17,906 nt of DNA from the NCBI GenBank assembly GCA_043767805.1, contig JAYUGC010000015.1:1-17906 (forward strand), in the 5' to 3' direction. The notes beneath the pieces are model-generated. The model did not search any database. It worked only from the letters and a program-made list of their open reading frames with translations, and was not told where the DNA came from. The first letter of the stretch is position 1. Every line of letters starts with the position of its first letter. This document shows positions 1 through 13,344 of the stretch, in pieces. This stretch comes from Pseudomonadota bacterium (GTDB taxonomy: Bacteria; Bdellovibrionota; FAC87; UBA2466). A program made the translations under genes and the position numbers.

Positions 1-1198
1 CCACCGGCAAGGAGCCGGTGGAGAGCGCGATCATATCGATCACCTCTTCCAGCGAGCCACCGCCGTTACCGCGCAAATCGTAGATCACGCCTGAAATTCG
101 CGGATCATCCTTGGCCACCTTCACCAGCCCTTCATAGACGTCATTGGCCACGGAAACTCTGTTCTGGCGATCCGAGTAGTAGCCCGGCAAGTCGACGACG
201 GCGATCCGATGCACGTCCTCACCGACTTGCACGTGGACCACGGACACTTTCACTCTGCCGTCCTCCACCCGAATCCGGCGCCGGGTAACCTTAATCGTCT
301 TAGGAGGCTGACCCTCCTCCGTAACCACTTTCAGATAGACGTCGGTACCCGCCTCACCGCTGATGAGTTGCAGCGCCTGCTGGGAAGGGATCTTATCGAA
401 GTCCACGAAGGTTTTGCCGTCTTGAGAAGCGCCGACAATGCGATGCCCCGGGCGTAACGAACCTTCTTCCGCCGCCCCGCCACCAGGAATGACGGACTTA
501 ATCTCGACGGCCCCGCCGCCTTTTCGAGGCGCGACGTTCACACCGATGCCTTCGAAGGAATTCTTCGTATGCACTTCAAATTGTTTGAGCGTGTCAGTCG
601 ACATGTAATTGGAATGAGGATCGAGCGCTCCCATGGCGGAGTCGAGATAGATTTCGACCAGCTGAGAGCTCTTCGCGGTCTGAGTCCATTCGAGACCGCG
701 GCTGAGATCTTCCTTGAGGCTGCTCAGCGCTTCTTCTCGCGTGGAACCGGAGCCAACGCGGATCTCGATGTCCTTTTTCACGAAATTGGTGAAAGCGTCG
801 GAGCCCGGCGGGGCTTCGCCTTTTTCGAGAGCGGCCACCATGGGGGGAATCTTTTCCTGCTTACGCTTTAAAAGGAGATTGAACATTTCCCAGGGCGCCG
901 AAAAATCCCCATTCGAGATTCCCGTGCCGTGCGCGTTCTCCAGCCGCTTCATGTGCTGATGGTCCTGTTCGCTCAAATAGATCTCGTCGGGATCCATCAT
1001 GGAAACAAACGCCGCGTGGATCTTCGCGGAGACGGAAGCAATAGGTACCTTCAGAAAGTGCTCGGTCTCGATGAGGCGGGCGACTTGGCGAGCGGTCTCT
1101 TGCTCGTCGGCGGAAGGAGGGCCAGGCTCGGCGCGCGCCGTAACAGCGAGCAACAATAGGAACCCGACCAAAAAACGAAATTCCGCACGACGGGTCAT
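1..1198 (-). CDS. prc: Carboxy-terminal/tail-specific protease, S41 family (Prc/Tsp-like), N-terminal ~399 aa; runs off the left edge
   Basis: Not in the ORF track (no stop within the window). Manual translation from ATG at 1198, with a GAGGAGG SD just upstream: signal peptide MTRRAEFRFLVGFLLLLAVTARA, then MDPDEIYL, ALDPHSNYM, PDZ-like SFEGIGV...VIPGGAAEEGSLRPGHRI, IAVVDLPGYY and the S41 motif GVIYDLRGNGGGSLEE. The catalytic Ser/Lys lie outside the window. Confidence 0.88.
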   Translation of the reverse strand, partial: MTRRAEFRFLVGFLLLLAVTARAEPGPPSADEQETARQVARLIETEHFLKVPIASVSAKIHAAFVSMMDPDEIYLSEQDHQHMKRLENAHGTGISNGDFSAPWEMFNLLLKRKQEKIPPMVAALEKGEAPPGSDAFTNFVKKDIEIRVGSGSTREEALSSLKEDLSRGLEWTQTAKSSQLVEIYLDSAMGALDPHSNYMSTDTLKQFEVHTKNSFEGIGVNVAPRKGGGAVEIKSVIPGGGAAEEGSLRPGHRIVGASQDGKTFVDFDKIPSQQALQLISGEAGTDVYLKVVTEEGQPPKTIKVTRRRIRVEDGRVKVSVVHVQVGEDVHRIAVVDLPGYYSDRQNRVSVANDVYEGLVKVAKDDPRISGVIYDLRGNGGGSLEEVIDMIALSTGSLPV

Positions 1199-1338
1199 TC
1201 AAGCCTCCTCAGCATCCACAGCCTTCAGCAGTGTATGTGAGGACAAAAAGAATACAGAAGGGATCTCTCTTTACCGAAAAAGCATCATTCGATCAGGACG
1301 TATTCCCTCCGCGTTCACCTAGAATGGAAGTCTTAACC

Positions 1339-3366
1339 ATGCAGGCTGGCCTATTCCCAATTCTGGTCCTAGTTTTGTCTGCGGCGTCGTCGTACGCGCT
1401 GAACGACTGCGACGAGTCTTTCGCTCGCGCGGCCAAGATCGTGAGCCTCTCCTCCCAAGGTAAAGTGGGCGAGGAGCAAGGAAATCGTTTTCTCGGGACT
1501 TTAACGGCTGAACAACTTTCTCCCGCACTAGATAGATCCCAGGAGCTCACCCGCGTGCTAAGCACGCGCCTCGGCACCCCGGCTGAGCTAACCGCTCTTG
1601 GCGATCTGGCGAGAGACGGGTTCGAAGTGTATGAGGTCAGCTCCAGCAAGGGAACGTTCGTTCTCAAAGTATTTGGAGACGGCGGCAGAAAGTCCATGCG
1701 TCAGTTCCTGCGAGAGCTGGCGGTGAATCACGCGGTGGGCGGTACTCTCTCCCAGCTAGTGCTGTCCCCTGGCGTCGATGCGTTCACCTTACAAGATAAA
1801 ACCGGAACTCATCCTACCCTCCTCATGCGGAAAGCCGACGGGGTCGGCCTCGACGTTCTTATCAAGCGGGTCTCCAGCGAAGCCCATGGGCTTTTGAACG
1901 CCGAGCATGCTCTTGGGTTTACGGGCCAAGCCTTGGCTGACTTTCATCAGAGGGAAAGAGCCATTGAGCCGAGCAAGACAGTAAGAAAAGAGGCTCGCGA
2001 ATTACTGAAGGACGAGCATTTAGATAAGTTTCGGCGCTGGTACGAGACGGATCAAGAAACCCCGATTAGCGTCGTCGATAGGCTTTTGGCGGAACACCTC
2101 CTCACCGGGCCTCAGGCGAAGGCATTCACCAAAGTGCTTAAAGAGAAACTGAAACGGGCCAAAAGGAACGCTCCCGGCGTCATCACCGTGGTGCACGGCG
2201 ACGCGAAGCCGAGCAATTTCTTTTTCGACAAGAAAACGGCGCGGGTGACCGCCATCGATTTGGAGACCATGGGACGCACGCTCCAGCAGACCGGCGACGC
2301 CGCGGAAGACGTGGGCCGCATGCTGGGCTCTCTAAAAAAAGAAGGGGCCCTCTCCGGACTGGGCGGCTTCGAGATAAAAAGGCTTCAAGCGGCTTTTCTC
2401 GATTCCTACTTTCACAACTGGAAGGGCAACCGCGCGCAATTCAAGGAACGAGTCGATTTCTACGAGCTCAGGTATTGGGGCGTAACCCTTGCTGACCCCA
2501 ACACTAAACTGACTCCGGAGCAGCGCCGCCGCCTCGCGGAGAACCTTCTCGACGAGGCGGAGATCTCGCGACCGGAAGTCCACGCTCTACAAAGACTCCT
2601 GGACGCTCCCTACCGCGATCTGGACGACGTGGAACTGCCCAGTAGCGTTCCTCTGGAAGTCGGCAGCCACGATTCTGAAACGATGTTCAAGCTCGCCAAG
2701 CAAACTTGGGCCGAGCTCTTCGATGACAGAGTTCTCACGGAAGCTTTGGAAAGGATAAAAGACAAATCCCTGGGTCAGGAAGACTTCCAATATTTGAAAG
2801 CGCTAAGAAAGCGCGCGATTTTGCTAAGAAGTACCTTTCAGGTGTTCGACCAGACTCATATGCCTCCCAAAAAGCTTCATCAATTCGTCCAAACCTTTGG
2901 CGAAATGAACGACGCCATCGCCAACGGGAAGACCAAGCTAGCTTCCCGGGCGGCCGAAGACGTACTGAAGCTCGTCAAAGCCAATGAGCCCAAGTCTTCC
3001 TTCTCGGCCTTTAAGCCGGCGACTCCGGCCTCCATCGGGCATCATCTTGCGGCTACCACGACCGAGATCGGGCGCACGCTCGCCAAGGCGACCCTCACGG
3101 CCAGAGAGTTTCACTCCGTTCGCAAGTCCGTGCGGCAACTTCACGCTTTCGTGCGCCTACTCCAGGCCAGTGAGCCGACGGAAGCGAAAGCCTCGGCTCT
3201 CGACTACCTGCACGCTTTGAATCTGCATACGGGGGCTATTCACGATCAGTTCGTGACCCGATCGCTGAACGGCGAAATCGACTACGAAAAGGCGACTCTC
3301 GCCGTACCCGGGGACTTGCGGGACAATCTCACCAGGATCATGACTCGGTTACAAATCGATCCTTAA
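1339..3366 (+). CDS. Putative exported fusion protein: APH/protein-kinase-like phosphotransferase domain + C-terminal CHAD (polyphosphate-binding) domain
   Basis: ORF 1231..3366; preferred start ATG 1339 (or 1324), giving signal peptide MQAGLFPILVLVLSAASSYA. Kinase motifs: FVLKVF, RELAV, VVHGDAKPSNFFFD (HGD at 2194), AIDLE, GDAAEDVGRMLGSL. CHAD-like two-fold repeat: LRKRAILLRSTFQVF...FGEMND and FHSVRKSVRQLHAF...LNLHTGAIHD. Confidence 0.75.
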   Translation: MQAGLFPILVLVLSAASSYALNDCDESFARAAKIVSLSSQGKVGEEQGNRFLGTLTAEQLSPALDRSQELTRVLSTRLGTPAELTALGDLARDGFEVYEVSSSKGTFVLKVFGDGGRKSMRQFLRELAVNHAVGGTLSQLVLSPGVDAFTLQDKTGTHPTLLMRKADGVGLDVLIKRVSSEAHGLLNAEHALGFTGQALADFHQRERAIEPSKTVRKEARELLKDEHLDKFRRWYETDQETPISVVDRLLAEHLLTGPQAKAFTKVLKEKLKRAKRNAPGVITVVHGDAKPSNFFFDKKTARVTAIDLETMGRTLQQTGDAAEDVGRMLGSLKKEGALSGLGGFEIKRLQAAFLDSYFHNWKGNRAQFKERVDFYELRYWGVTLADPNTKLTPEQRRRLAENLLDEAEISRPEVHALQRLLDAPYRDLDDVELPSSVPLEVGSHDSETMFKLAKQTWAELFDDRVLTEALERIKDKSLGQEDFQYLKALRKRAILLRSTFQVFDQTHMPPKKLHQFVQTFGEMNDAIANGKTKLASRAAEDVLKLVKANEPKSSFSAFKPATPASIGHHLAATTTEIGRTLAKATLTAREFHSVRKSVRQLHAFVRLLQASEPTEAKASALDYLHALNLHTGAIHDQFVTRSLNGEIDYEKATLAVPGDLRDNLTRIMTRLQIDP

Positions 3367-4089
3367 CTACTTGATGCCGAGAGCCCACGGCGCGGTCCCG
3401 ATCTGCGTTCGGCAGGGAGGAACGCCCTTCGAGACGAGAAGCTTACTTATCTGCTGGAAGCGCGTGCTCGTGCCGGGGTCCTCTTTGGTCGAGAGCTGAA
3501 GGAGTTGGGCGCCGGAAGACAGGGTCATCATCTCCAAATCGAAAGGAACCGGCTGGGCATCGAGTGACCATTTCAAGTTGTCGATGGGTCCAACCGCCGC
3601 CAAAGCACTCCAGGGAACCCGAGCCCTCATGGAAGTCAGAAATTTAACCTGCTTTTTGGTAAAAAGTACTTCTGGGCTCCGGCGGCCCGCGAGGACGTCC
3701 TTGAGATCGGACATGTCCGCTTCTTCTTCGCTGAATGAGCAATGGATGACGGCGTTCTTACCTTGGAAGTCCGTCTCGCACTTGAACCCGTCCTCGTCCT
3801 TGAAGTCGTCGGGAACTCTTTGAGAATCAGTGGTGAGCTTCACGGTCACTTCCACCGGCTCTCCCTTTTCGCCTCTGAGCCGCAGCAGAAGGCCCGCGCG
3901 ATACAAATCCCGGTTTCTCGTATCGAGATAGTAAAGGTACCGGCGCTTCGACTTCGAAACGTCGGCCGCGAGCTGGCGCTTGACCGCCGCGGGGCTCGTC
4001 TCACACAGCGTCCAGTGGTACTCGGCCTGAGTGGCGTGGAGCGAAGTGCTAAGAAAGAGAGTCGCTAAGGTCAGGGTGATCTTGCTCAT
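3367..4089 (-). CDS. Putative exported CYTH/triphosphate-tunnel-fold protein
   Basis: ORF 3367..4161; preferred start ATG 4089, giving signal peptide MSKITLTLATLFLSTSLHA. CYTH-type motifs YYLDTRNRDLYRAGLLLRLR, EVTVKL, FKCETD, LFTKKQ, VGPIDNLKW, LLQLSTK. Confidence 0.75.
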   Translation of the reverse strand: MSKITLTLATLFLSTSLHATQAEYHWTLCETSPAAVKRQLAADVSKSKRRYLYYLDTRNRDLYRAGLLLRLRGEKGEPVEVTVKLTTDSQRVPDDFKDEDGFKCETDFQGKNAVIHCSFSEEEADMSDLKDVLAGRRSPEVLFTKKQVKFLTSMRARVPWSALAAVGPIDNLKWSLDAQPVPFDLEMMTLSSGAQLLQLSTKEDPGTSTRFQQISKLLVSKGVPPCRTQIGTAPWALGIK

Positions 4090-4202
4090 GGGACGTAGTC
4101 TTTCGTCGAGAAGCGCACCGGTCAACGCCGGGATTGATAAAACTTCCACAAAGAACGACACAAGCCTTGTCGAGCGCGTCCTCTCCCATTAGCTGTCTCC
4201 CC

Positions 4203-4873
4203 ATGACGGGGTTTTGGGTTTTATCGATCTTCACCGCGCTGCTCCTCGGTTGCGCGGGGCGTCCAGCCTCTCCCGCACTTCCCCGCCTTGAGCTGTTTCC
4301 GTTGAAAGAAACCGCGACGCTCGGCGAGTTCCACGAACAAAGGATTTCGCTCGGAGGTTTTTCGGGACTTTGCTTCCGCGGCGAGACAGAGGGGAAGCTT
4401 CGTTTTCTCGCTCCCACCGACAGAGGCCCCAATCCAGAGCCCGTGACCCTCCCCAATAAAAGCAAAGGACGTGTCTTTCTCCTCCCGAGGCTCTCCCCGT
4501 TGGAGACGCCACAGCTTTGGCGCCTGGAAAATTCTTGGTAATTGAGCAGGGCTCGACCAAAGGCCCCCATTCGTTTCATCGCGTCTTCTCCTTAGACGTC
4601 ACGCAGGCGACGAATCTCTTAGACCGAACGGATAGAACGCATTCCCGGCCCGCCGCTAAAACCCTCGTCGCCGATCTCACCGCATTGGGTTACGACTTCG
4701 CTGAAAAAGTGGAAGGACTCACGGTCGTGAGCCCGACGACCTTGGCCGTTTTGAATGACAATGATTTCGGCGTGGCTTCCGACGATCTCCGGGAACGCTC
4801 GCGGGCCCGTATCCTTACCGACGCTCCCTCCGTTCTCGGCCTCATCCATTTGTCCGAGCCCTTGACTCCCTGA
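4203..4873 (+). pseudogene. Phytase-like (esterase-like activity of phytase family) lipoprotein, disrupted by an internal deletion and frameshift near 4498-4501
   Basis: The first frame, from ATG 4203, gives a lipoprotein signal (LLLG-C) plus the family N-terminal motifs LGGFSGL and TDRGPN. A different frame from ~4499 gives C-terminal motifs VGDATALAPGKFLVIEQG, AEKVEGLTVV and AVLNDNDFGV, ending TGA 4873. The total of ~220 codons is about half the usual family length. Confidence 0.75.
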
Positions 4874-4951
4874 GCCGTCGGAAATCCAATTGTGGTTCCC
4901 CGACGAGAGGAATAGGATTTTTTTGCTTAGGTTACCAACCAAGGAGATCCC

Positions 4952-5146
4952 ATGAAGAAACTTCTCGGACTACTGACTCTACTAGGGGCGGCGCTAGCTT
5001 TCGCCGACAACAGCCCCGTTCCGCAGAATCAGCAGCAGCAACAACAGCAGCAGGCCCAGCAAAACAAAAAACACCAACAGCAGCAACAGCACAAGCAGCA
5101 CCACCAGCACGGCCATCCTCACAATCAGCACCCGACCCCGAATTGA
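4952..5146 (+). CDS. Small secreted Gln/His/Lys-rich peptide (64 aa)
   Basis: SD AAGGAG at 4941-4946 and a classic Sec signal MKKLLGLLTLLGAALAFA. The 46-aa mature part has 19 Gln, 8 His and 3 Lys, with mixed CAG/CAA codons. Confidence 0.85.
   Translation: MKKLLGLLTLLGAALAFADNSPVPQNQQQQQQQQAQQNKKHQQQQQHKQHHQHGHPHNQHPTPN
5024..5131 (+). repeat. Coding low-complexity CAG/CAA/CAC repeat (Q8 at 5030-5053, Q5, His-rich tail)
   Basis: Read directly: cag cag cag caa caa cag cag cag ... caa cag cag caa cag cac aag cag cac cac cag cac. Confidence 0.9.
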
Positions 5147-5160
5147 GATCCGCATCTAAT

Positions 5161-5187
5161 GGGAGAGGAGGCCTTCCCTCCTCTCCC
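5161..5187 (+). terminator. 11-bp perfect stem-loop without a U-tract (partial terminator or mRNA-stabilising hairpin)
   Basis: GGGAGAGGAGG-CCTTC-CCTCCTCTCCC, 14 nt after the peptide stop codon. No poly-T follows. Confidence 0.6.
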
Positions 5188-5225
5188 CCATGAACTTGCG
5201 TTACTTAAAGTTAAGAGGCGGCTCG

Positions 5226-6896
5226 ATGTCCCCACTATTTGCGCTCCTGGTTTATCTCGTCGGTAATCTCGCTTTTGCCGGCCCTTCTACCAAACTCAGC
5301 CCAACGGAAACCGAGCTCGTGAATCAGAGGCTTCGGCGCTTTTATCAGAATAGCGAGGCGGCCATCATGAACGAGCGGGTTCCCAAATTTTCCGCCCGCA
5401 CCGGCGCCGCGGTCGAGCGGCATCGTTCGCTGCGTTTGGCTAAGGCGCCCACCAACCCCCTGCTCAAACTCGCGCAGAAAAAGGCGACACCGGAGTTTCA
5501 GAAGGCGCAACGCGAAGTCTTCAAAAAACATTTTCCGGGAGCCTACGGCCCAAGAGTTTCCGGCACGTGGTCTGCGCCCGAAGCCAACGATGCGTTAGCC
5601 GACATCAGCGACGGATGGATCGCCAAAGACAAGCTCGTTTACGATTTGGACTCCCTACCGGCCGACGGCGAGACGAAGCTCGATCTCTGGTCCGACGACT
5701 ACTGGCGCACGCGGTACGGCGGTCTCGCGTATCGTTATTCCAATCCGGAAGAGTACGAAACCTGGGAAGAGGCCGCGGACGTTTACGCCCAGCCCAAGAA
5801 CTGGGACAAGCTCGTCGACGATCTCGACAAGACCGAGCTGACCCAACGCATCCGCAAATGGTCGCCGGCGGAAAAGTACGACTTGAGTCTCTTCGATCTG
5901 GAGTTTCCTCTCACCAATCAGCAAAAAGAGCTCGGCGAGGAGTTTCTGGAAGAAGACGAAAAAACGGTCGAAGACTGGGTCGGCATCTGCCACGGCTGGG
6001 CAGCGGCCACCGTCATGGTCCCGCGTCCTGAAAAGACCGTCAAAGTCCCGGGTCCGGAGAAAACCACGATCACCTGGTACCCGAACGACATCAAGGCCGT
6101 CGCTTCGCTTCTCTGGGCGGAAGCCGAGTCGGACAATAATTTCGCGGGTGTCAAATGCGAGATTAAGAACCCGGCCTACTATCAAAACGGCCGCATGCAG
6201 GATCAAGATTGTTTCGACACGAATCCGGCGACCTTTCACTTGGCTCTCGGTAACCAGGTGGCTCTCGCCGGAAAAACGTTTCTCATGGACAACACGTTCG
6301 ACTACGAGATTTGGAATCAGCCCATCCAGTCGTACGAGTTCCTCTATTTCGATCCGATTCACCCGGAAAAACGCAGCAAGAACTGGAAAGAAGTGGCCGT
6401 GCCTTACGACGCCTCGTTCAAAGCCGGGGATCGGTTTCAAAAGCCGCTGACTCGCGGGCAGAAAAACGAAAAAGGGGTTTGGGACGATTCGGGCGTCCGC
6501 CAAATCGTGGGAGTCATCAACTCCATCGCCTATATCGGGGAAGTGTCTCCGCCCGCGCACACCGAGGTGGCCAATGACGATGAGCTCGTGCGGGTCACCT
6601 ATACCTACGACTTGGAAATCAGCGAAGCGGACGGGAAAAGCGTGGTCTCCGGCGGCGAATGGCACGAGAACTCCCACCCAGACTTCCTCTGGGTTCCCAG
6701 GAAGGGGACTCGGGCGCTTACCTCCTATGACACGAAGCCAATCGACTATTCGGGGAAACGCGAAGTGGGCGTGGACGCGACCAAATACGCCCGCAAAGCG
6801 AGCCAGAGCGGAGTTCCCCTCTGCGAGGTGCTGTCGACGCTCATTGAGCTGTCGACGGGTGCCGAAGCCGACCTTTGCCCTCCGACTTCGCCCTAA
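5226..6896 (+). CDS. Secreted transglutaminase of the GP42/TGase_elicitor family
   Basis: ORF 5190..6896; preferred start ATG 5226 (AGAGG upstream), signal peptide MSPLFALLVYLVGNLAFA. Family motifs in the expected order: LWSDDYW, SPAEKYD, WVGICHGW (Cys-His at 5988-5993), NDIKA (Asp at 6087), DTNPATFHLALGN, IWNQPI (Pep-13-like), YTYDLE, GGEW, HPDFLW. Confidence 0.85.
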   Translation: MSPLFALLVYLVGNLAFAGPSTKLSPTETELVNQRLRRFYQNSEAAIMNERVPKFSARTGAAVERHRSLRLAKAPTNPLLKLAQKKATPEFQKAQREVFKKHFPGAYGPRVSGTWSAPEANDALADISDGWIAKDKLVYDLDSLPADGETKLDLWSDDYWRTRYGGLAYRYSNPEEYETWEEAADVYAQPKNWDKLVDDLDKTELTQRIRKWSPAEKYDLSLFDLEFPLTNQQKELGEEFLEEDEKTVEDWVGICHGWAAATVMVPRPEKTVKVPGPEKTTITWYPNDIKAVASLLWAEAESDNNFAGVKCEIKNPAYYQNGRMQDQDCFDTNPATFHLALGNQVALAGKTFLMDNTFDYEIWNQPIQSYEFLYFDPIHPEKRSKNWKEVAVPYDASFKAGDRFQKPLTRGQKNEKGVWDDSGVRQIVGVINSIAYIGEVSPPAHTEVANDDELVRVTYTYDLEISEADGKSVVSGGEWHENSHPDFLWVPRKGTRALTSYDTKPIDYSGKREVGVDATKYARKASQSGVPLCEVLSTLIELSTGAEADLCPPTSP

Positions 6897-7038
6897 GTGC
6901 GCACGCGCGAGCTTTTTCCTACTTTGCGGCAACATCATTATCCGAGGCCGCTCGGCTGGACGCTTCGACGGACGAGAGCCCGATAGCCGACTGGACAAAC
7001 GCAGTATTGCCGATTACATAGGGGATTCTTCGTGTGGG

Positions 7039-7114
7039 GCCGACGTAGCTCAGTCGGTAGAGCAGCTCATTCGTAATGAGCAGGTCACCGGTTCGAGTCC
7101 GGTCGTCGGCTCCA
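7039..7114 (+). tRNA. tRNA-Thr (anticodon CGT)
   Basis: 76-nt cloverleaf GCCGACG...CGTCGGC-T-CCA, D-arm AGCTCAGTCGGTAGAGC, anticodon loop TTCGTAA (CGT at 7072-7074), T-loop GGTTCGAGTCC, encoded CCA. Confidence 0.97.
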
Positions 7115-7311
7115 GTCTTTTAGCCCCCTAGAAAGTCTAAGCCTGCCGAGCCATCACATGGAGCTCCGCAATCCGACGCAAGCCGCCCTCTTGAAGACAT
7201 CGGGCTCACCTGAATCTGAGACGGCTCGAGCGCTTCGAGCGGCTTCATGCCAGAATCGATGAGCGCCTTCAAGTCCCCGGCTTGCGTGCGTAGATACTAC
7301 GACGCGTCACC

Positions 7312-7331
7312 ACTGGTTATGACTGGTTATG
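7312..7331. repeat. Perfect 10-bp tandem direct repeat (ACTGGTTATG)x2, candidate regulator site upstream of nuoA
   Basis: The repeat is seen directly in the tRNA-nuoA intergenic region; its function is inferred. Confidence 0.5.
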
Positions 7332-7411
7332 TCCCGGAGGAGCCGATCCCAACCCACTGAAGGGCTTGAGAAATTCACGGATTCTCTCGTTGAAGGGTGC
7401 TCCCCCGTCTG

Positions 7412-7439
7412 TTACGTTACTTGCGCAAATTCAACGTAA
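7412..7439. promoter_or_regulatory. Inverted repeat TTACGTT-N14-AACGTAA with internal palindrome TTGCGCAA, candidate operator for the nuo operon
   Basis: Dyad symmetry seen directly ~40-65 nt upstream of the likely nuoA start. Confidence 0.4.
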
Positions 7440-7477
7440 GGAGTGGCCCGCCGGAAGCCTCGCGGGCTAAAGTCATA

Positions 7478-7837
7478 GTGGAATATTTGCCCGTACTTAT
7501 CATGTTGGGTATCGGTGCCGTGGTCGGCGCCGGCATGCTTCTTTTGCCCCGCCTGATCGCCCCGCGGCTGCCCAACGCCCGTAAGAACGAGCCCTTCGAG
7601 TGCGGCGTTCCCGCCCACGGCGATGCCCACCGCCGCATTTCGGTGCGTTTTTACCTCGTGGCGATTCTCTTTTTGCTTTTTGACGTGGAAGCGATTTTCT
7701 TTTTTCCCTGGGCCGTCGTGTACCGGGATTTCCTCGCCATCAACTCGTTCATCGTTTTCGAGATGGCGGCGTTCGTAGCGGTCCTCCTGGTCGGTCTCTA
7801 CTACGTTTGGCGTAAAGGAGCCCTGCTCTGGGATTGA
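7478..7837 (+). CDS. nuoA: NADH-quinone oxidoreductase subunit A
   Basis: PFECG, RFYLVAILFLLFDVEAIFFFPWA, WRKGALLWD. A GTG start at 7478 gives a typical 119 aa. Confidence 0.95.
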   Translation: MEYLPVLIMLGIGAVVGAGMLLLPRLIAPRLPNARKNEPFECGVPAHGDAHRRISVRFYLVAILFLLFDVEAIFFFPWAVVYRDFLAINSFIVFEMAAFVAVLLVGLYYVWRKGALLWD

Positions 7838-7847
7838 AGGTGATTTA

Positions 7848-8363
7848 ATGGGCAAGGACGGATCTTTAAGCTTCTTCACGACCCGCCTCGACGACTTCCT
7901 CAGCTGGGGAAGAAAGAACGCGCTTTGGCCTTTGCCTTTCGGCACGAGCTGCTGCGGCATCGAGATGATGGCAACCCTAAGCAGCGACTACGACATGGCT
8001 CGCTTCGGCGCCGAGGCCATCCGCTTTTCTCCTCGTCAGAGCGATCTCCTTATCGTCGCGGGAATCGTGAACGCGAAGATGACGCCCATCCTGGTCAGCG
8101 TCTACGAGCAGATGAGCGATCCGAAATGGGTCATGTCCTTTGGCGCCTGCGCGTCTTCGGGCGGCGTCTTTCCGGTTTATAGCGTCACGCAAGGCATCGA
8201 TCGCGTGATCCCGGTCGACATCTATATCCCCGGCTGTCCGCCCTCTCCCGATTCGGTTCTCTACGCTTTGATGGAGCTCCAAAAGCGCATTGCCCGGGGC
8301 GAGACGCATGCTCAGCACCGCATCGTGAAAGCCCGTGAAGGGAAAGGGGCGGTCACACCGTGA
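7848..8363 (+). CDS. nuoB: NADH-quinone oxidoreductase subunit B
   Basis: FGTSCCGIEM, RFSPRQSDLLIVAG, GACASSGG, PVDIYIPGCPP (N2 cluster ligands). Confidence 0.97.
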   Translation: MGKDGSLSFFTTRLDDFLSWGRKNALWPLPFGTSCCGIEMMATLSSDYDMARFGAEAIRFSPRQSDLLIVAGIVNAKMTPILVSVYEQMSDPKWVMSFGACASSGGVFPVYSVTQGIDRVIPVDIYIPGCPPSPDSVLYALMELQKRIARGETHAQHRIVKAREGKGAVTP

Positions 8364-8935
8364 TTGAAAGATTCGATATCCGCACCCGCGTGCCCACGAT
8401 TTACGGCGACTGGTGGGAACGCTTTGGCCCTGTCTGGGCCGAGCAGGCGGAAACCCTGAAACAGAAATTCGGCAACGCCGTTCCCGAAGTGCGGCTTCCG
8501 CCCACTTTCCCCACGGACGTGCCCATCGTCTACGTGCACAAAGAGCATATCGTCGAGGTTTTGACCTATTTGAGAGATTCGCTCGGTTACGACTTTTTGG
8601 CCGATCTCACGGCGACGGACGAAGGCGGCGAGCCGCGCTTTGAAGTCGTCTACAACCTCTACGCTATGAAGGCGAAGGGCCCGCGCATCCGCGTGAAGTC
8701 CAAAGTCGGCGAAGCGGAAGACATTCCGTCGATAGTTACGGTCTGGAAAGGCGCGGACTGGGCCGAGCGCGAAGTCTACGACATGTTCGGCATCAAATTT
8801 CGCGGTCACCCCAACCTCCGGCGCATCCTCATGGATTACCGCTGGGAAGGGTATCCGCTCCGTAAAGATTATCCCTTGGATGGCTATCAGGTGTTCCCGG
8901 ACGCCGAGGCCCCCGATCCAGAGAGGCTGAGATAA
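8360..8935 (+). CDS. nuoC: NADH-quinone oxidoreductase subunit C
   Basis: RFEVVYNL, WAEREVYDMFGIKFRGHPNLRRILM, GYPLRKDYPL. GTGA overlap with nuoB. Confidence 0.96.
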   Translation: MIERFDIRTRVPTIYGDWWERFGPVWAEQAETLKQKFGNAVPEVRLPPTFPTDVPIVYVHKEHIVEVLTYLRDSLGYDFLADLTATDEGGEPRFEVVYNLYAMKAKGPRIRVKSKVGEAEDIPSIVTVWKGADWAEREVYDMFGIKFRGHPNLRRILMDYRWEGYPLRKDYPLDGYQVFPDAEAPDPERLR

Positions 8936-10182
8936 TGCACGAAGGTAGAGACAAAATACCGTCGAGCAAGCTGCCCGAGCGGTTCACGTTTCAGCCGGAT
9001 CCCGACGACCTCTGGGAAGACTCGCGGGTCATCATCAATATCGGCCCGACGCATCCCTCGATGCACGGCGCGTTCCGGATGGTGGCAAAGCTTAACGGCG
9101 AGACGATCGAAAAGTCTTACTGCGAGTTCGGCTACACGCACCGCGCGAAGGAAAAGCTCGGCGAGCACCGCACCTACCATCAGTTCGTGGTCTTCACCGA
9201 TCGCCTGAATTATTGCTCGGCTCTCATCAACAACGTCACCTACGCTATGAGCGTCGAGCAGCTCATGGGCATCCAAGTGCCCGAGCGTTGCGTGTGGCTC
9301 CGCATGATGTGCGCGGAGCTCGCACGCGTCACCGATCACCTTATCTGCATCGGCATTAACGCCGTGGATCTCGGCGCCTTCAGCTTCTTCCTCTACGGCT
9401 TTCATCAGCGCGAAGAGGCCTACACCTTAATCGAAAAGCTCTGCGGCGCGCGTCTCACGACGAGCTACACCCGCATCGGCGGCTTGATGTACGACTCGCC
9501 CCCCGGCTGGGAAGACGAGCTGCGCGTTTGGATCAAAAAGACACGCGCCTGCATCAACGAGATGGATGCGATTCTCACGCACAACCAGATCTGGTGCGGC
9601 CGCACCCAAGGCGTTGGCGCCTTCACGCCCGAACAATGCCGGGATTGGTCCTTCACGGGGCCCGTGGCCCGCGCGGCCGGCATCGATCACGATTTGCGCC
9701 GAGACCAGCCTTGTCTATTTTACGACCAGGTGACGTTCGACGTTCCCACGGGCGAGCACGGCGACGTGTACGATCGCTACCTGGTCCGCATGGAAGAAGT
9801 GCGCCAATCCTTGCGCATTCTCGAGCAATGCTGCGACAAGATTAAGCCGGGGCCCATCTGGGTGGAAGACAAGCGCGTCCGCATTCCCGAGAAAGAGCTC
9901 GTCTACAACTCGATGGAAGGCATGATCCATCACTTCAAATTTTTCATGACGGGCTTCGACGTTCCCGAAGGCGAAGCCTACACCACCTTCGAAGCGGCGA
10001 ACGGAGAGCTCGGCTTTTACATCGTGAGCCGAGGCAATCCGAAGTCGCACCGCATGCGTATCCGCGGGCCGTCGGTCTGGCACTATCAAGGGCTTTCCCC
10101 CATGGTAGAAGGCTCTAAGATCGCCGACATGGTGGCCTCCATCGGAAGCCTCAACATCATCGCAGGGGAGCTCGATCGGTAA
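8935..10182 (+). CDS. nuoD: NADH-quinone oxidoreductase subunit D
   Basis: NIGPTHPSMHG, GYTHRAKEK, DRLNY, GDVYDRYLVRMEEVRQS, EAANGELG, GELDR C-terminus. Confidence 0.97.
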   Translation: MHEGRDKIPSSKLPERFTFQPDPDDLWEDSRVIINIGPTHPSMHGAFRMVAKLNGETIEKSYCEFGYTHRAKEKLGEHRTYHQFVVFTDRLNYCSALINNVTYAMSVEQLMGIQVPERCVWLRMMCAELARVTDHLICIGINAVDLGAFSFFLYGFHQREEAYTLIEKLCGARLTTSYTRIGGLMYDSPPGWEDELRVWIKKTRACINEMDAILTHNQIWCGRTQGVGAFTPEQCRDWSFTGPVARAAGIDHDLRRDQPCLFYDQVTFDVPTGEHGDVYDRYLVRMEEVRQSLRILEQCCDKIKPGPIWVEDKRVRIPEKELVYNSMEGMIHHFKFFMTGFDVPEGEAYTTFEAANGELGFYIVSRGNPKSHRMRIRGPSVWHYQGLSPMVEGSKIADMVASIGSLNIIAGELDR

Positions 10183-10662
10183 ATGGGCAAGTTACTCTCG
10201 ACACATTTTTACGAGCGCATGGACAAGTTAGTCCCGCGCTATCCCACGCGAGTCGCGTTGCTACTGCCCGCTTTCCACGCGGCTCAGGAAGAGCACGGCT
10301 GGCTAGCGCCCGAGATTTTGCACGAAGTCGCGGACTACATCGGCATTCACCCTGCGCAAGCGCGCGAAGTGGCGAGCTTCTACAACATGTACCACCTGGA
10401 GCCCGTGGGCCGGCATTTCCTGCGCATCTGCACGAACGTCTCTTGCTCTTTACGGGGCGGACAAGATCTCGTCGCTCATTGTAAGAAGAAGTACGCGGTC
10501 GATTGCAATGAAACGACCAAAGACGGCAAGATCACTTTCATCGAGGAAGAATGCCTCGGCGCCTGCGGCACGGCCCCGGCCGTGATGCTGGACGACAACT
10601 ATCACGAGAACCTTTCCGTCGAGCGCCTCGACATCATCTTGAACGGATTGGGTAACCGATGA
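10183..10662 (+). CDS. nuoE: NADH-quinone oxidoreductase subunit E
   Basis: VASFYNMY, ICTNVSCSLRG, ECLGACGTAP ([2Fe-2S] N1a). Confidence 0.96.
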   Translation: MGKLLSTHFYERMDKLVPRYPTRVALLLPAFHAAQEEHGWLAPEILHEVADYIGIHPAQAREVASFYNMYHLEPVGRHFLRICTNVSCSLRGGQDLVAHCKKKYAVDCNETTKDGKITFIEEECLGACGTAPAVMLDDNYHENLSVERLDIILNGLGNR

Positions 10663-11945
10663 AGACGCTCTACATCCAGCATTTCAAAGAGTCGTGCCGC
10701 CCCCTGTCCTACTACCTGGAGCAAATGGAAGGCTATCAGGCCGCCAAAAAAGCTTTGGCCATGGCACCGGACGCGGTCATCGACGAAGTGAAAAAATCCA
10801 ACTTGCGCGGCCGCGGGGGCGCGGGCTTTCCGGCGGGCATGAAGTGGAGCTTCATCCCGAAGATGTCCGCGAAGCCGAAATACGTAGTCTGCAACGCGGA
10901 TGAGTCCGAGCCCGGCACGTTCAAAGACCGGGATCTCATCCGGTACACGCCTCATCTTTTGATCGAAGGCATGATCATCGCGGGCCATGCCATCGCCTCC
11001 GAAGTTGGCTACATCTACATCCGCGGCGAGTACGTGCGCGAAGCGAAACTTTTACAAGCCGCCATCGAGGAGGCCTACGACAAGGGCTACCTCGGCGAGA
11101 ACGTGCTCGGCACCGGCAAGAAATTTCACTTGACGCTCCACCGGGGCGCGGGAGCGTACATCTGCGGCGAAGAGACCGCACTTTTGAACTCTCTCGAAGG
11201 TAAGCGTGGCGAGCCCCGCGTGAAGCCGCCCTTCCCGGCGATTTCGGGCGCCTTCGCGGGCCCCACGGTCGTCAACAACGTCGAGACCCTTTGTGCGGTT
11301 CCCCACATCATGCGTAACGGCGGCGAGTGGTTTGCGAAGCTAGGCTCCTCCGACAAATCGGGCGGCACGCGCCTCATCTGCGTTTCGGGGCACGTGAAGA
11401 AACCCGGCGTGTACGAGATTCAAGCGGGCAGCTTCACCATTCGGCAAATCATTTACGATCTCTGCGGCGGCATCTTGGACGACAAGCCCTTGAAGGCGGT
11501 CATTCCCGGCGGCTCCTCCGCGCCTGTTCTGACGCCCGAAGAAATCGACGTCACCTATGACATCGAGCCGCTCCAAAAGATCGGCACCATGATGGGATCG
11601 GCCGCGATGATCGTCGTCGCCGAAGGTACGTCGCTTCCGAAGCTCATCCGGCGCATCACCCACTTTTACGCCCACGAGTCTTGCGGCCAGTGCACACCCT
11701 GCCGTGAGGGCTGCCGCTGGATGGAAGACGTTTTCAACCGGATCCTCGACGGCAAAGGCCGCCCGGCGGACTTGCCCTTACTCAACGACATCGCGAACAA
11801 CATCAACGGCAAAACTTTGTGCGCGCTCGGCGACGCCGCCGCGGGCCCGGTCATCAGCTTCATCAAGAAGTTCCGCGCGGATTTCGAGGCGCTCATTCCC
11901 GGCACGGCCGCTGCTTTGACTGAAGGGAAGGCGACTCATGCCTAA
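10659..11945 (+). CDS. nuoF: NADH-quinone oxidoreductase subunit F
   Basis: LRGRGGAGFPAGMKW, NADESEPGTFKDR, GAGAYICGEETAL, ESCGQCTPCREG, TLCALGD. Confidence 0.98.
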   Translation: MKTLYIQHFKESCRPLSYYLEQMEGYQAAKKALAMAPDAVIDEVKKSNLRGRGGAGFPAGMKWSFIPKMSAKPKYVVCNADESEPGTFKDRDLIRYTPHLLIEGMIIAGHAIASEVGYIYIRGEYVREAKLLQAAIEEAYDKGYLGENVLGTGKKFHLTLHRGAGAYICGEETALLNSLEGKRGEPRVKPPFPAISGAFAGPTVVNNVETLCAVPHIMRNGGEWFAKLGSSDKSGGTRLICVSGHVKKPGVYEIQAGSFTIRQIIYDLCGGILDDKPLKAVIPGGSSAPVLTPEEIDVTYDIEPLQKIGTMMGSAAMIVVAEGTSLPKLIRRITHFYAHESCGQCTPCREGCRWMEDVFNRILDGKGRPADLPLLNDIANNINGKTLCALGDAAAGPVISFIKKFRADFEALIPGTAAALTEGKATHA

Positions 11946-13344
11946 GTGCACCATCAACGGCAAAGAGATCGAGTTCACTCCCGGCACGAACCTCATCGAG
12001 GTCGCGCGTCAGGGCGGCATCGAAGTGCCTTACTTCTGCTACCATCCCGGTCTTTCGGTTGTCGCCCAATGCCGGATGTGCGCGGTGGAAATCGAAAAAA
12101 TGCCGAAACTCCAGACGGCGTGCTCGACGCCCGCGACCGACGGTATGGTGATTCGCACCGATACGCCCCGCGTGAAAGATGCCCAAAAGGGCACGATGGA
12201 ATTTTTACTGATCAATCACCCGCTCGATTGCCCCATCTGCGACAAGTCGGGCGAGTGCGATCTGCAAGACCTGTCGTTCAAGTACGGCAGCCAGTACATG
12301 CGCTACACCGAAGAGCGCCGCGAGTTTCAAGACGACGACATGGGCCCGGTCATCAAGAAGGACATGAACCGCTGCATCCATTGCACGCGCTGCATTCGGT
12401 TCGCCGATGAGATCGCGGGCACGCGGGAAATCGTGGCCCTTCAGCGCGGTAACCACACCGAGATTACGACGGTCGACAACAAGCCTTTGGAATCGGCCTA
12501 CTCCGGCTGCTATGCGGACGTTTGCCCGACGGGCTCGCTCACCCTGAAAGATTTCCGTTTCAAGAAACGCGTTTGGTACCTGAAGCGCACCCCGACGGTC
12601 TGTGAAGGCTGCGCGCGTGGCTGCAACATGAACATGGACCAGGCGGACGAGGTCGTTTACCGGTGCACGCCTCGCACGAACATGGAAGTGAACAAGTACT
12701 GGATGTGCGACGAAGGCCGCTTCAACTTCCACTACACGAAAAGCCCGGAACGGGTAATCGTTCCGTCGGTGGACGGCTCGTGGGACCGTTCGGTGGCAAA
12801 AGCCGCGGATCTCATGGCGGGCAAACGCCTCACCATTCTCGTCGGAAGCGATCTGACAAATCAGGAAGTAGATCTCATCCAGCGCTTCAGTGAGAAGTCT
12901 TTTCCGACGTCCAAGCTCTATCACTTCGGCACGCCTGGCATTTTGAGTGCGGCCGACGACGCGGACGAGGACAAGATCTTAAAGCGCACCAGCAAGACCT
13001 CTAACTTGCATGGCGTGGAAAAGCTCGGCCTAAAGGGCTTTAAGGCCCTCGACGAAGACGCCGAAGCGGTCCTTGTCTTTAGAGGCGGCCGCGCGGTGCT
13101 TCCCGACCTGGGCCACCACTTGCCGACGGTCGGCGTGGGCGTGTTCTTTCATACGGAAGCGAAACAGTTCGACGCGCTTCTTCCCGGCACGAGCTTCGCG
13201 GAGAAAGACGGCACCATCGTCAATTTCCAGGGCAAGGAGCAGCCGCTCAAAACCTCCATCATGCCGCCGGGAGAATCGAAGCCCCTTTTTGAAATTCTCA
13301 CGCGCTGGATGAATTCGACCAAGGGTGAGCTCCGACATGGATAG
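11938..13344 (+). CDS. nuoG: NADH-quinone oxidoreductase subunit G, short form (468 aa)
   Basis: PYFCYHP...CRMC...ACST, NHPLDCPICDKSGECDLQ, RCIHCTRC...DVCPTG, CEGCARGC...WMCDEGRF. The C-terminal region is strongly reduced. Confidence 0.93.
   Translation: MPKCTINGKEIEFTPGTNLIEVARQGGIEVPYFCYHPGLSVVAQCRMCAVEIEKMPKLQTACSTPATDGMVIRTDTPRVKDAQKGTMEFLLINHPLDCPICDKSGECDLQDLSFKYGSQYMRYTEERREFQDDDMGPVIKKDMNRCIHCTRCIRFADEIAGTREIVALQRGNHTEITTVDNKPLESAYSGCYADVCPTGSLTLKDFRFKKRVWYLKRTPTVCEGCARGCNMNMDQADEVVYRCTPRTNMEVNKYWMCDEGRFNFHYTKSPERVIVPSVDGSWDRSVAKAADLMAGKRLTILVGSDLTNQEVDLIQRFSEKSFPTSKLYHFGTPGILSAADDADEDKILKRTSKTSNLHGVEKLGLKGFKALDEDAEAVLVFRGGRAVLPDLGHHLPTVGVGVFFHTEAKQFDALLPGTSFAEKDGTIVNFQGKEQPLKTSIMPPGESKPLFEILTRWMNSTKGELRHG

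Follow-up and report, generated by a model that had tools for sequence, protein, structure and literature searches.

Candidate transglutaminase and Gln/Lys-rich peptide gene pair in a member of the Bdellovibrionota, and recurrence of exported Gln/Lys-rich proteins beside TGase_elicitor genes

What do bacterial transglutaminases of the GP42 type join together, and can their substrates be recognized from the neighbouring genes? To our knowledge GP42 itself has no defined natural substrate, and no substrates or partner genes of bacterial GP42-type transglutaminases are described in the parts of the literature covered by our search. The question is raised by contig JAYUGC010000015.1 of assembly GCA_043767805.1 (Pseudomonadota bacterium; GTDB lineage Bacteria; Bdellovibrionota; FAC87; UBA2466), a stretch of 17,906 nucleotides (nt), called the window here, which is C15 among the 204 contigs of an assembly (G000) totalling 4.52 Mb. 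An earlier note, made from the sequence alone, had pointed to a short open reading frame (ORF) for a secreted, Gln-rich peptide directly upstream of a gene for a secreted transglutaminase on the same strand, and this observation is confirmed. We give an even chance to the reading that the two genes make up an extracytoplasmic cross-linking module, in which an enzyme and a genome-encoded substrate carrying Gln donors and Lys acceptors would be produced side by side. Elsewhere in the phylum, TGase_elicitor genes are recurrently linked to exported Gln/Lys-rich proteins of other kinds.

The pre-peptide of 64 amino acids (aa) begins with an 18-residue signal, consisting of a Met-Lys-Lys n-region, a hydrophobic core and an Ala-Phe-Ala end followed by Asp. 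Its 46-aa mature part contains 19 Gln, 8 His, 5 Asn, 5 Pro and 3 Lys, in agreement with the counts of Gln, Lys and His given earlier, and the eight His residues are clustered within the C-terminal 24 residues. With 14 CAG and 5 CAA among the Gln codons, the tract differs from a pure DNA repeat. A pattern search found one (CAR)8 tract in the source genome, and this tract adjoins the only TGase_elicitor gene of that genome. Under the criterion described below, 28 ORFs of the 4.52-Mb genome (~0.7% of its ORF-sized genes) contain a Gln/Lys-rich 30-aa window, the densest being the peptide, with 18 Gln in 30 residues. No Pfam family matched the peptide, and a word-based homology search with it scored none of 85 candidates and gave no sequence relatives. 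Of the listed runs that contain the stretch, none is recorded as RNA; among four DNA runs, identical contigs were recovered from two other samples of the same study, where the polyGln tract (4989-5060) was left unbridged.

The product of the downstream gene matched the Pfam family PF16683 (TGase_elicitor) with an E-value of 1.6e-30 and 106.6 bits (gathering cut-off 25), the aligned part spanning profile positions 12-260 of 361 and one further stretch, and the solved chain of Phytophthora sojae GP42 (3tw5_A) with an E-value of 1.3e-18. A PF16683 search of the source genome returned this gene as its sole match. When the protein was aligned with 25 homologues, Cys255-His256 (nt 5988-5993) fell within an invariant block comprising W251, G253, C255, G257 and W258, and the Cys-His pair was present in 22 of the 26 sequences, the enzyme included. 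The remaining four (L011, L013, L018 and L023) are paralogues from genus g11 that carry Cys-Asp instead, and their activity may be altered or lost. Four Asp residues (D331, D355, D462 and D486) are invariant in the alignment and are candidates for the third catalytic residue, an Asp on a helix or an Asn on beta-2 by which the His is positioned. Its hidden Markov model score and its Cys-His motif place the predicted enzyme among the GP42/TGase_elicitor proteins, so that the family assignment and the intact Cys-His motif of the earlier note both hold; as such it would be expected to form Gln-Lys isopeptide bonds in a Ca-dependent way. The adjacent Cys-His 'CH' active-site motif is the one described for GP42 in PMC10318531. 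Both proteins are secreted; the window's enzyme differs in its bacterial host, in an N-terminal region of ~130 aa that is extra to GP42 and in a longer C-terminal part, and the Pep-13 elicitor role of GP42 in plants is irrelevant to it. Of 301 genomes of the phylum, 145 contain PF16683, frequently as more than one gene, and scans of genomes and metagenome contigs gave no closer orthologue of the enzyme than relatives of only 43-46% identity.

The start of the enzyme is ambiguous. Initiation at ATG 5226 gives a protein of 556 aa with an 18-aa signal ending in LAFA, an n-region without charge and an AAGAGG motif upstream, while initiation at ATG 5190 gives 568 aa and a 30-aa signal with Arg/Lys, but lacks a ribosome-binding site. 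For the enzyme, the 18-aa signal ending in LAFA that the earlier note describes goes with ATG 5226. The signals of both proteins were judged by eye; they share their c-region, and the n-region of the enzyme varies with the start. As both products carry Sec signals, any modification would take place outside the cytoplasm.

In the proposed module, the product of the downstream gene would be a papain-fold transglutaminase (GP42/TGase_elicitor family) exported by Sec, and that of the upstream gene a small, Sec-exported and intrinsically disordered peptide, which would offer its 19 Gln as acyl donors and its 3 Lys as acceptors. Once both are exported, Cys255 of the enzyme would react with the side chain of a Gln, set ammonia free and transfer the acyl group to a Lys amine. 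The outcome could be homopolymers of the peptide, or its grafting onto envelope or target proteins, which would thereby receive a His-rich tail. Co-transcription of the two genes, activity of the enzyme and the role of the peptide as its substrate are inferred. A complex prediction for enzyme residues 19-556 (with the 26-row alignment) and the 46-aa peptide, run without controls, scored 0.00 against a mark of 0.32, which weighs neither for nor against the pairing.

The two genes are 79 nt apart (43 nt with start 5190), and the space between them is occupied by a strong hairpin that starts 15 nt after the peptide ORF, abuts the possible start at 5190 and leaves 38 nt to ATG 5226. The 111-nt intergenic region folds with -37.2 kcal/mol (z -3.71), and none of 200 shuffled sequences folds as well. 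The terminator scan was silent on the hairpin because the T tail is missing; the structure is possibly an attenuator, a stabiliser or a weak terminator, and in the module it would keep the peptide message in excess over the enzyme message. With no sigma-70-like site predicted by the promoter scan anywhere in 4000-7500, and with a gap of 38 nt after the hairpin, the enzyme gene would most simply be transcribed through the peptide gene, or from a start within it.

The case for a substrate gene draws on what is encoded beside related transglutaminases. An ORF of at least 40 aa was counted as Gln/Lys-rich if it contained a 30-aa window with at least 9 Gln, or with at least 6 Gln and at least 5 Lys and a sum of the two of at least 13. 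The first set consisted of 33 loci from relatives and 30 from a PF16683 search of the phylum, minus three duplicates (L005, L083 and L124, of L002, L003 and L029), i.e. 60 loci. Nine loci matched, five within the transglutaminase itself and four in neighbours (L006, L009, L135 and L140). Two of the four belong to the window's own family: at L006 a Gln/Tyr/Pro repeat lipoprotein is encoded directly downstream of the transglutaminase, and at L009 a Val-Lys-Gln repeat/DUF4142 protein is encoded upstream. For replication, 60 loci were taken in listed PF16683 order after the criterion had been fixed, and seven of them matched in 395 kb of flanking DNA; a single lipoprotein family accounts for four of the seven matches and another protein for one, and the other two are TPR proteins ~2.6 kb from the transglutaminase, which are probably unrelated to it. 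Control DNA, comprising 40 stretches (795 kb) on the same contigs at 10-40 kb from the transglutaminase, contained four such ORFs in three stretches, with no repeat protein among them. The density of Gln/Lys-rich ORFs is accordingly ~3.5 times higher in the transglutaminase flanks than in control DNA, with survey flanks that differ in width (1.5 kb vs 3.5 kb), and the replication excess over the control rate has a Poisson p of 0.004 and a conditional binomial p of 0.038.

The five matches within the enzyme are Gln-rich N-terminal regions that directly follow the signal peptide (L025/L026 967-2976, L027, L030 and L142 890-2650). Such a region inside a transglutaminase might be a pro-region or a self-substrate.

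The lipoprotein family was recognized from seven transglutaminase neighbours that have in common a lipobox signal and a ~165-aa N-domain without Pfam match, and a profile search of the 301 genomes of the phylum recovered 17 copies in 15 genomes from four GTDB families. A PF16683 gene is the immediate neighbour at 10 of the 17 loci, always in divergent orientation (1.5-kb flanks), and for three further copies the contig carries a PF16683 match at a distance of 3-5 kb. The four copies without a nearby PF16683 gene comprise one on a short contig, one in a PF16683-free genome and two weak matches. Fourteen of the 15 lipoprotein-bearing genomes are PF16683-positive, compared with 145 of 301 overall (binomial p 3e-4, kinship uncorrected). 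The tails of these proteins, up to 339 aa long, are built from short repeat units of Asp, Lys, Gly, Gln, Glu and Pro that are wholly different among copies, with a composition of 15-32% Gln and 3-20% Lys, mostly together with acidic residues and Gly. A dedicated substrate encoded beside its Gln-Lys ligase would be expected to look like this, constant in composition and free in sequence. No description of this family was seen in the parts of the literature that were searched. At L195 and L217, a second lipoprotein follows the repeat lipoprotein, and a 472-497-aa protein with a similar C-terminal end is encoded beyond the transglutaminase; these genes may belong to a larger conserved cluster around the lipoprotein-transglutaminase pair.

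A second polyGln case came from a search of the phylum for such tracts. Runs of eight Gln codons occur at 52 places in 44 of the 301 genomes, and among the 51 sites examined, the window's own being left out, one adjoins a transglutaminase gene, vs ~0.08 expected by chance. At this site, in genome G298 of family f14, a secreted polyGln protein is encoded directly upstream of a co-oriented TGase_elicitor gene, ~105 nt away and with no stable hairpin between them. A wider reading, possible but in our view less likely than not, is that the phylum possesses a class of secreted GP42-type transglutaminases with fast-evolving, exported, Gln/Lys-rich dedicated substrates, of which the window would be the minimal form, a self-polymerising 46-residue peptide. 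With its His-rich, possibly metal-binding tail, this peptide could then build a covalent coat or an adhesive, or become attached to prey or surface proteins as a graft.

Several observations weigh against a dedicated enzyme-substrate pair in the window, and some of them bear on the surveys themselves. The criterion for Gln/Lys-rich ORFs was framed after sight of L009 and of the window, and the surveyed genomes are kin and hence non-independent. Most of the Gln/Lys excess stems from the one lipoprotein family, which the profile search of the 301 genomes did not find in the source genome or elsewhere in the window's family (f1); the window's peptide, without the ~165-aa N-domain, falls outside it and shares only its Gln/Lys-rich, exported character. 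At L009, a canonical terminator stands between the repeat-protein gene and the transglutaminase, and in the window the strong hairpin does so. The exact pairing of peptide and enzyme looks unique among the loci compared: a polyGln mini-ORF was found at none of 120 other transglutaminase loci of the phylum (the first set and a second set of 60 further PF16683 places). A genome of the same genus (G001) has a transglutaminase of 44% identity at another locus, without the peptide, and its tRNA-Thr/nuoA region holds other genes and shows no synteny with the window. The earlier expectation that small Gln/Lys-rich ORFs would recur beside homologous transglutaminases thus had a mixed outcome: the polyGln mini-peptide does not recur, and exported proteins with Gln/Lys-rich low-complexity segments do so within the phylum (the lipoproteins at 10 of 17 loci, G298, L006 and L009).

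A DNA search with the peptide region also revealed two look-alikes, of 74 aa in G003 and 102 aa in G008, which share with the window's peptide the design of signal peptide, polyGln and Gln/His-rich part. Both precede genes for GH15 enzymes rather than transglutaminases, both are followed by a strong terminator hairpin with T tail, and neither mature part contains Lys; the transglutaminases of the two genomes are, in the available sequence, on other contigs. PolyGln after a signal peptide is also found in larger exported proteins of these genomes, and is a common compositional habit of the exported proteins of the family. The look-alikes and their setting favour an independent peptide gene. A role of the Gln/His peptide as a general GH15 partner was considered and rejected, as it is found at only 2 of 31 GH15 loci of the family and at none of the three in the source genome.

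The main rival, possible in our view though doubtful, is a lineage-specific secreted Gln/His-rich peptide that stands beside the transglutaminase by chance and whose transcript would end at the hairpin. Such a peptide might be metal-binding or otherwise a sticky, disordered product of the periplasm or the extracellular space. The His cluster is consistent with this, as are the cores rich in Cys or Cys/Asp of the look-alikes, which resemble metal ligands, although a metal-binding tail would be equally compatible with a role as transglutaminase substrate. The three known peptides front two kinds of enzyme (GH15 in G003 and G008, transglutaminase here), both look-alikes have their clear terminators, polyGln after signal peptides is widespread in these genomes and the pairing is unconserved over the 120 loci, all of which would suit an independent gene. 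Chance is, however, an improbable explanation for the adjacency of the only (CAR)8 gene and the only transglutaminase gene in ~4.5 Mb, the G298 pair and the lipoprotein linkage show that this transglutaminase family attracts such neighbours, and the intergenic region has little room for a separate enzyme promoter. The source genome also encodes another secreted His-rich protein (C113:2431-2718, + strand), of 95 aa and with the His-rich part in its C-terminal half; it is likely a metal-binding periplasmic protein, and its existence agrees with an independent role for the peptide.

Quite unlikely is the proposal that the small ORF is an unexpressed chance frame over a CAG/CAA-rich stretch. It would account for the lack of sequence relatives and of a Pfam family, and low-complexity repeats do yield long ORFs in several frames, such as the poly-Leu frame on the opposite strand (4994-5155); yet the ORF has a strong ribosome-binding site at ideal spacing, a canonical signal peptide with an Ala-X-Ala end and mixed Gln codons without a pure repeat, and peptides of this build are found in two further genera, where proper terminators follow them. 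Least likely of all is a regulatory leader of the secM-secA type, in which the state of translation or export of the small ORF would govern the hairpin and, through it, expression of the enzyme: a secreted mini-ORF followed after 15 nt by a very stable hairpin abutting start 5190, and the position of all three such peptides directly upstream of secreted-enzyme genes, would fit, but no arrest motif is known or conserved, the structures in G003 and G008 are ordinary terminators with T tails, the hairpin leaves the better ribosome-binding site at 5213-5218 uncovered and the extreme Gln/His composition would be left unexplained.

Known cross-linking systems offer analogies for the module rather than relatives of it. 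Bacillus subtilis Tgl cross-links spore-coat substrates such as GerQ into an insoluble layer outside the cytoplasm; it belongs to a different transglutaminase family, and its substrates are ordinary coat proteins that are not known to be encoded beside the enzyme. The likeness is that of a bacterial transglutaminase acting on specific structural proteins. In the vertebrate cornified envelope, classical Ca-dependent transglutaminases act on involucrin, loricrin and small proline-rich proteins, which have Gln/Lys-rich low-complexity repeats with rapidly changing units and a steady composition. The tails of the lipoproteins encoded next to the TGase_elicitor genes likewise keep their composition and vary their repeats, with no homology implied. 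The earlier note had also likened the layout to operons for ribosomally synthesized and post-translationally modified peptides (RiPPs). The order of a short precursor gene directly upstream of an enzyme gene is indeed shared, and the intergenic hairpin could likewise set the ratio of the two messages. A RiPP precursor, however, carries a leader or follower that its modifying enzyme recognizes in the cytoplasm, with the leader removed afterwards. Membership does not hold, as both products have Sec signals: the peptide lacks such a leader, the transglutaminase too leaves the cytoplasm, and the expected product would be a cross-linked polymer or graft and no discrete natural product. Among the neighbouring genes scanned with Pfam, no RiPP enzyme, protease or transporter families were seen.

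If the gene neighbours are substrates, they reveal what the GP42-type enzymes build, and if the wider class is real, its substrates would parallel, in bacteria, the envelope precursors of the involucrin type. If the module is true, a small gene-encoded peptide that cross-links itself and comes with its enzyme would be a useful tool for bioconjugation or hydrogels. The conserved lipoprotein-transglutaminase pair represents a second and better-conserved test system, possibly in cultivable relatives. The coordinates of all features are collected in Table 1.

Table 1. Features of the window and of the compared loci. Positions without a locus name refer to the window.
Feature	Position	Strand	Basis and remarks
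Shine-Dalgarno-like AAGGAGA	4941..4947	+	4 nt 5' of the peptide ATG; read from sequence
ORF for 64-aa pre-peptide	4952..5146	+	signal peptide 4952-5005; mature 46-aa part 5006-5143; stop 5144-5146
Eight consecutive Gln codons (CAG and CAA mixed) at the centre of the polyGln tract	5030..5053	+	pattern match; sole such site in the source genome
G+C-rich hairpin, 11 bp with 5-nt loop	5161..5187	+	between the two genes; no T run after it
AAGAGG, possible ribosome-binding site for ATG 5226	5213..5218	+	7 nt 5' of the ATG; read from sequence
Secreted TGase_elicitor (GP42-family) transglutaminase, 556 aa	5226..6896	+	PF16683, PDB 3tw5, 26-homologue alignment
APH-type kinase-domain protein, 711 aa	1231-3366	+	upstream of the peptide/enzyme pair
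Secreted protein without Pfam match, 264 aa	3367-4161	-	upstream of the peptide/enzyme pair
Phytase-like (PF13449) gene in two overlapping frames	4134..4873	+	Pfam, ORFs; split near 4517-4541
tRNA-Thr(CGU)	7039..7114	+	followed by the nuo operon from 7397
Look-alike peptide, G003	L034 1420-1644	+	directly upstream of a secreted GH15 glucoamylase-like gene
Look-alike peptide, G008	L039 1284-1592	-	directly upstream of a secreted GH15 glucoamylase-like gene
Secreted 168-aa polyGln protein, G298:C15 (family f14)	L291 1546-2052	+	signal peptide, 17-Gln run, Cys-containing C-domain
TGase_elicitor gene, G298	L291 2158-3609	+	co-oriented, directly downstream of the polyGln gene
Repeat lipoprotein loci	L244-L250, L255, L256, L258		e.g. 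L249 466-1980 (-); L246 1258-2028 (-)

Another small secreted protein was found beside transglutaminases. At L002 (2451-2837, + strand) and L003 (2499-2873, + strand), a conserved secreted protein of 124-128 aa is encoded directly upstream of the enzyme and, as in the duplicate loci L005 and L083, it has a Tyr/Trp/Cys-rich C-terminal domain. This protein may be a partner of a different sort, or reflect local synteny alone. The idea that small secreted ORFs of any composition generally precede the transglutaminase was rejected, a conserved small partner being confined to one lineage among 33 loci.

In the surroundings of the pair, the flat GC content (0.54-0.62 across 1-12000) gives no sign of an island, and the idea of a tRNA-linked insertion was dropped. 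The split region of the phytase-like gene has the same gap-free sequence in contigs from two other samples, and the split is therefore a real frameshift or a pseudogene and not an assembly slip.

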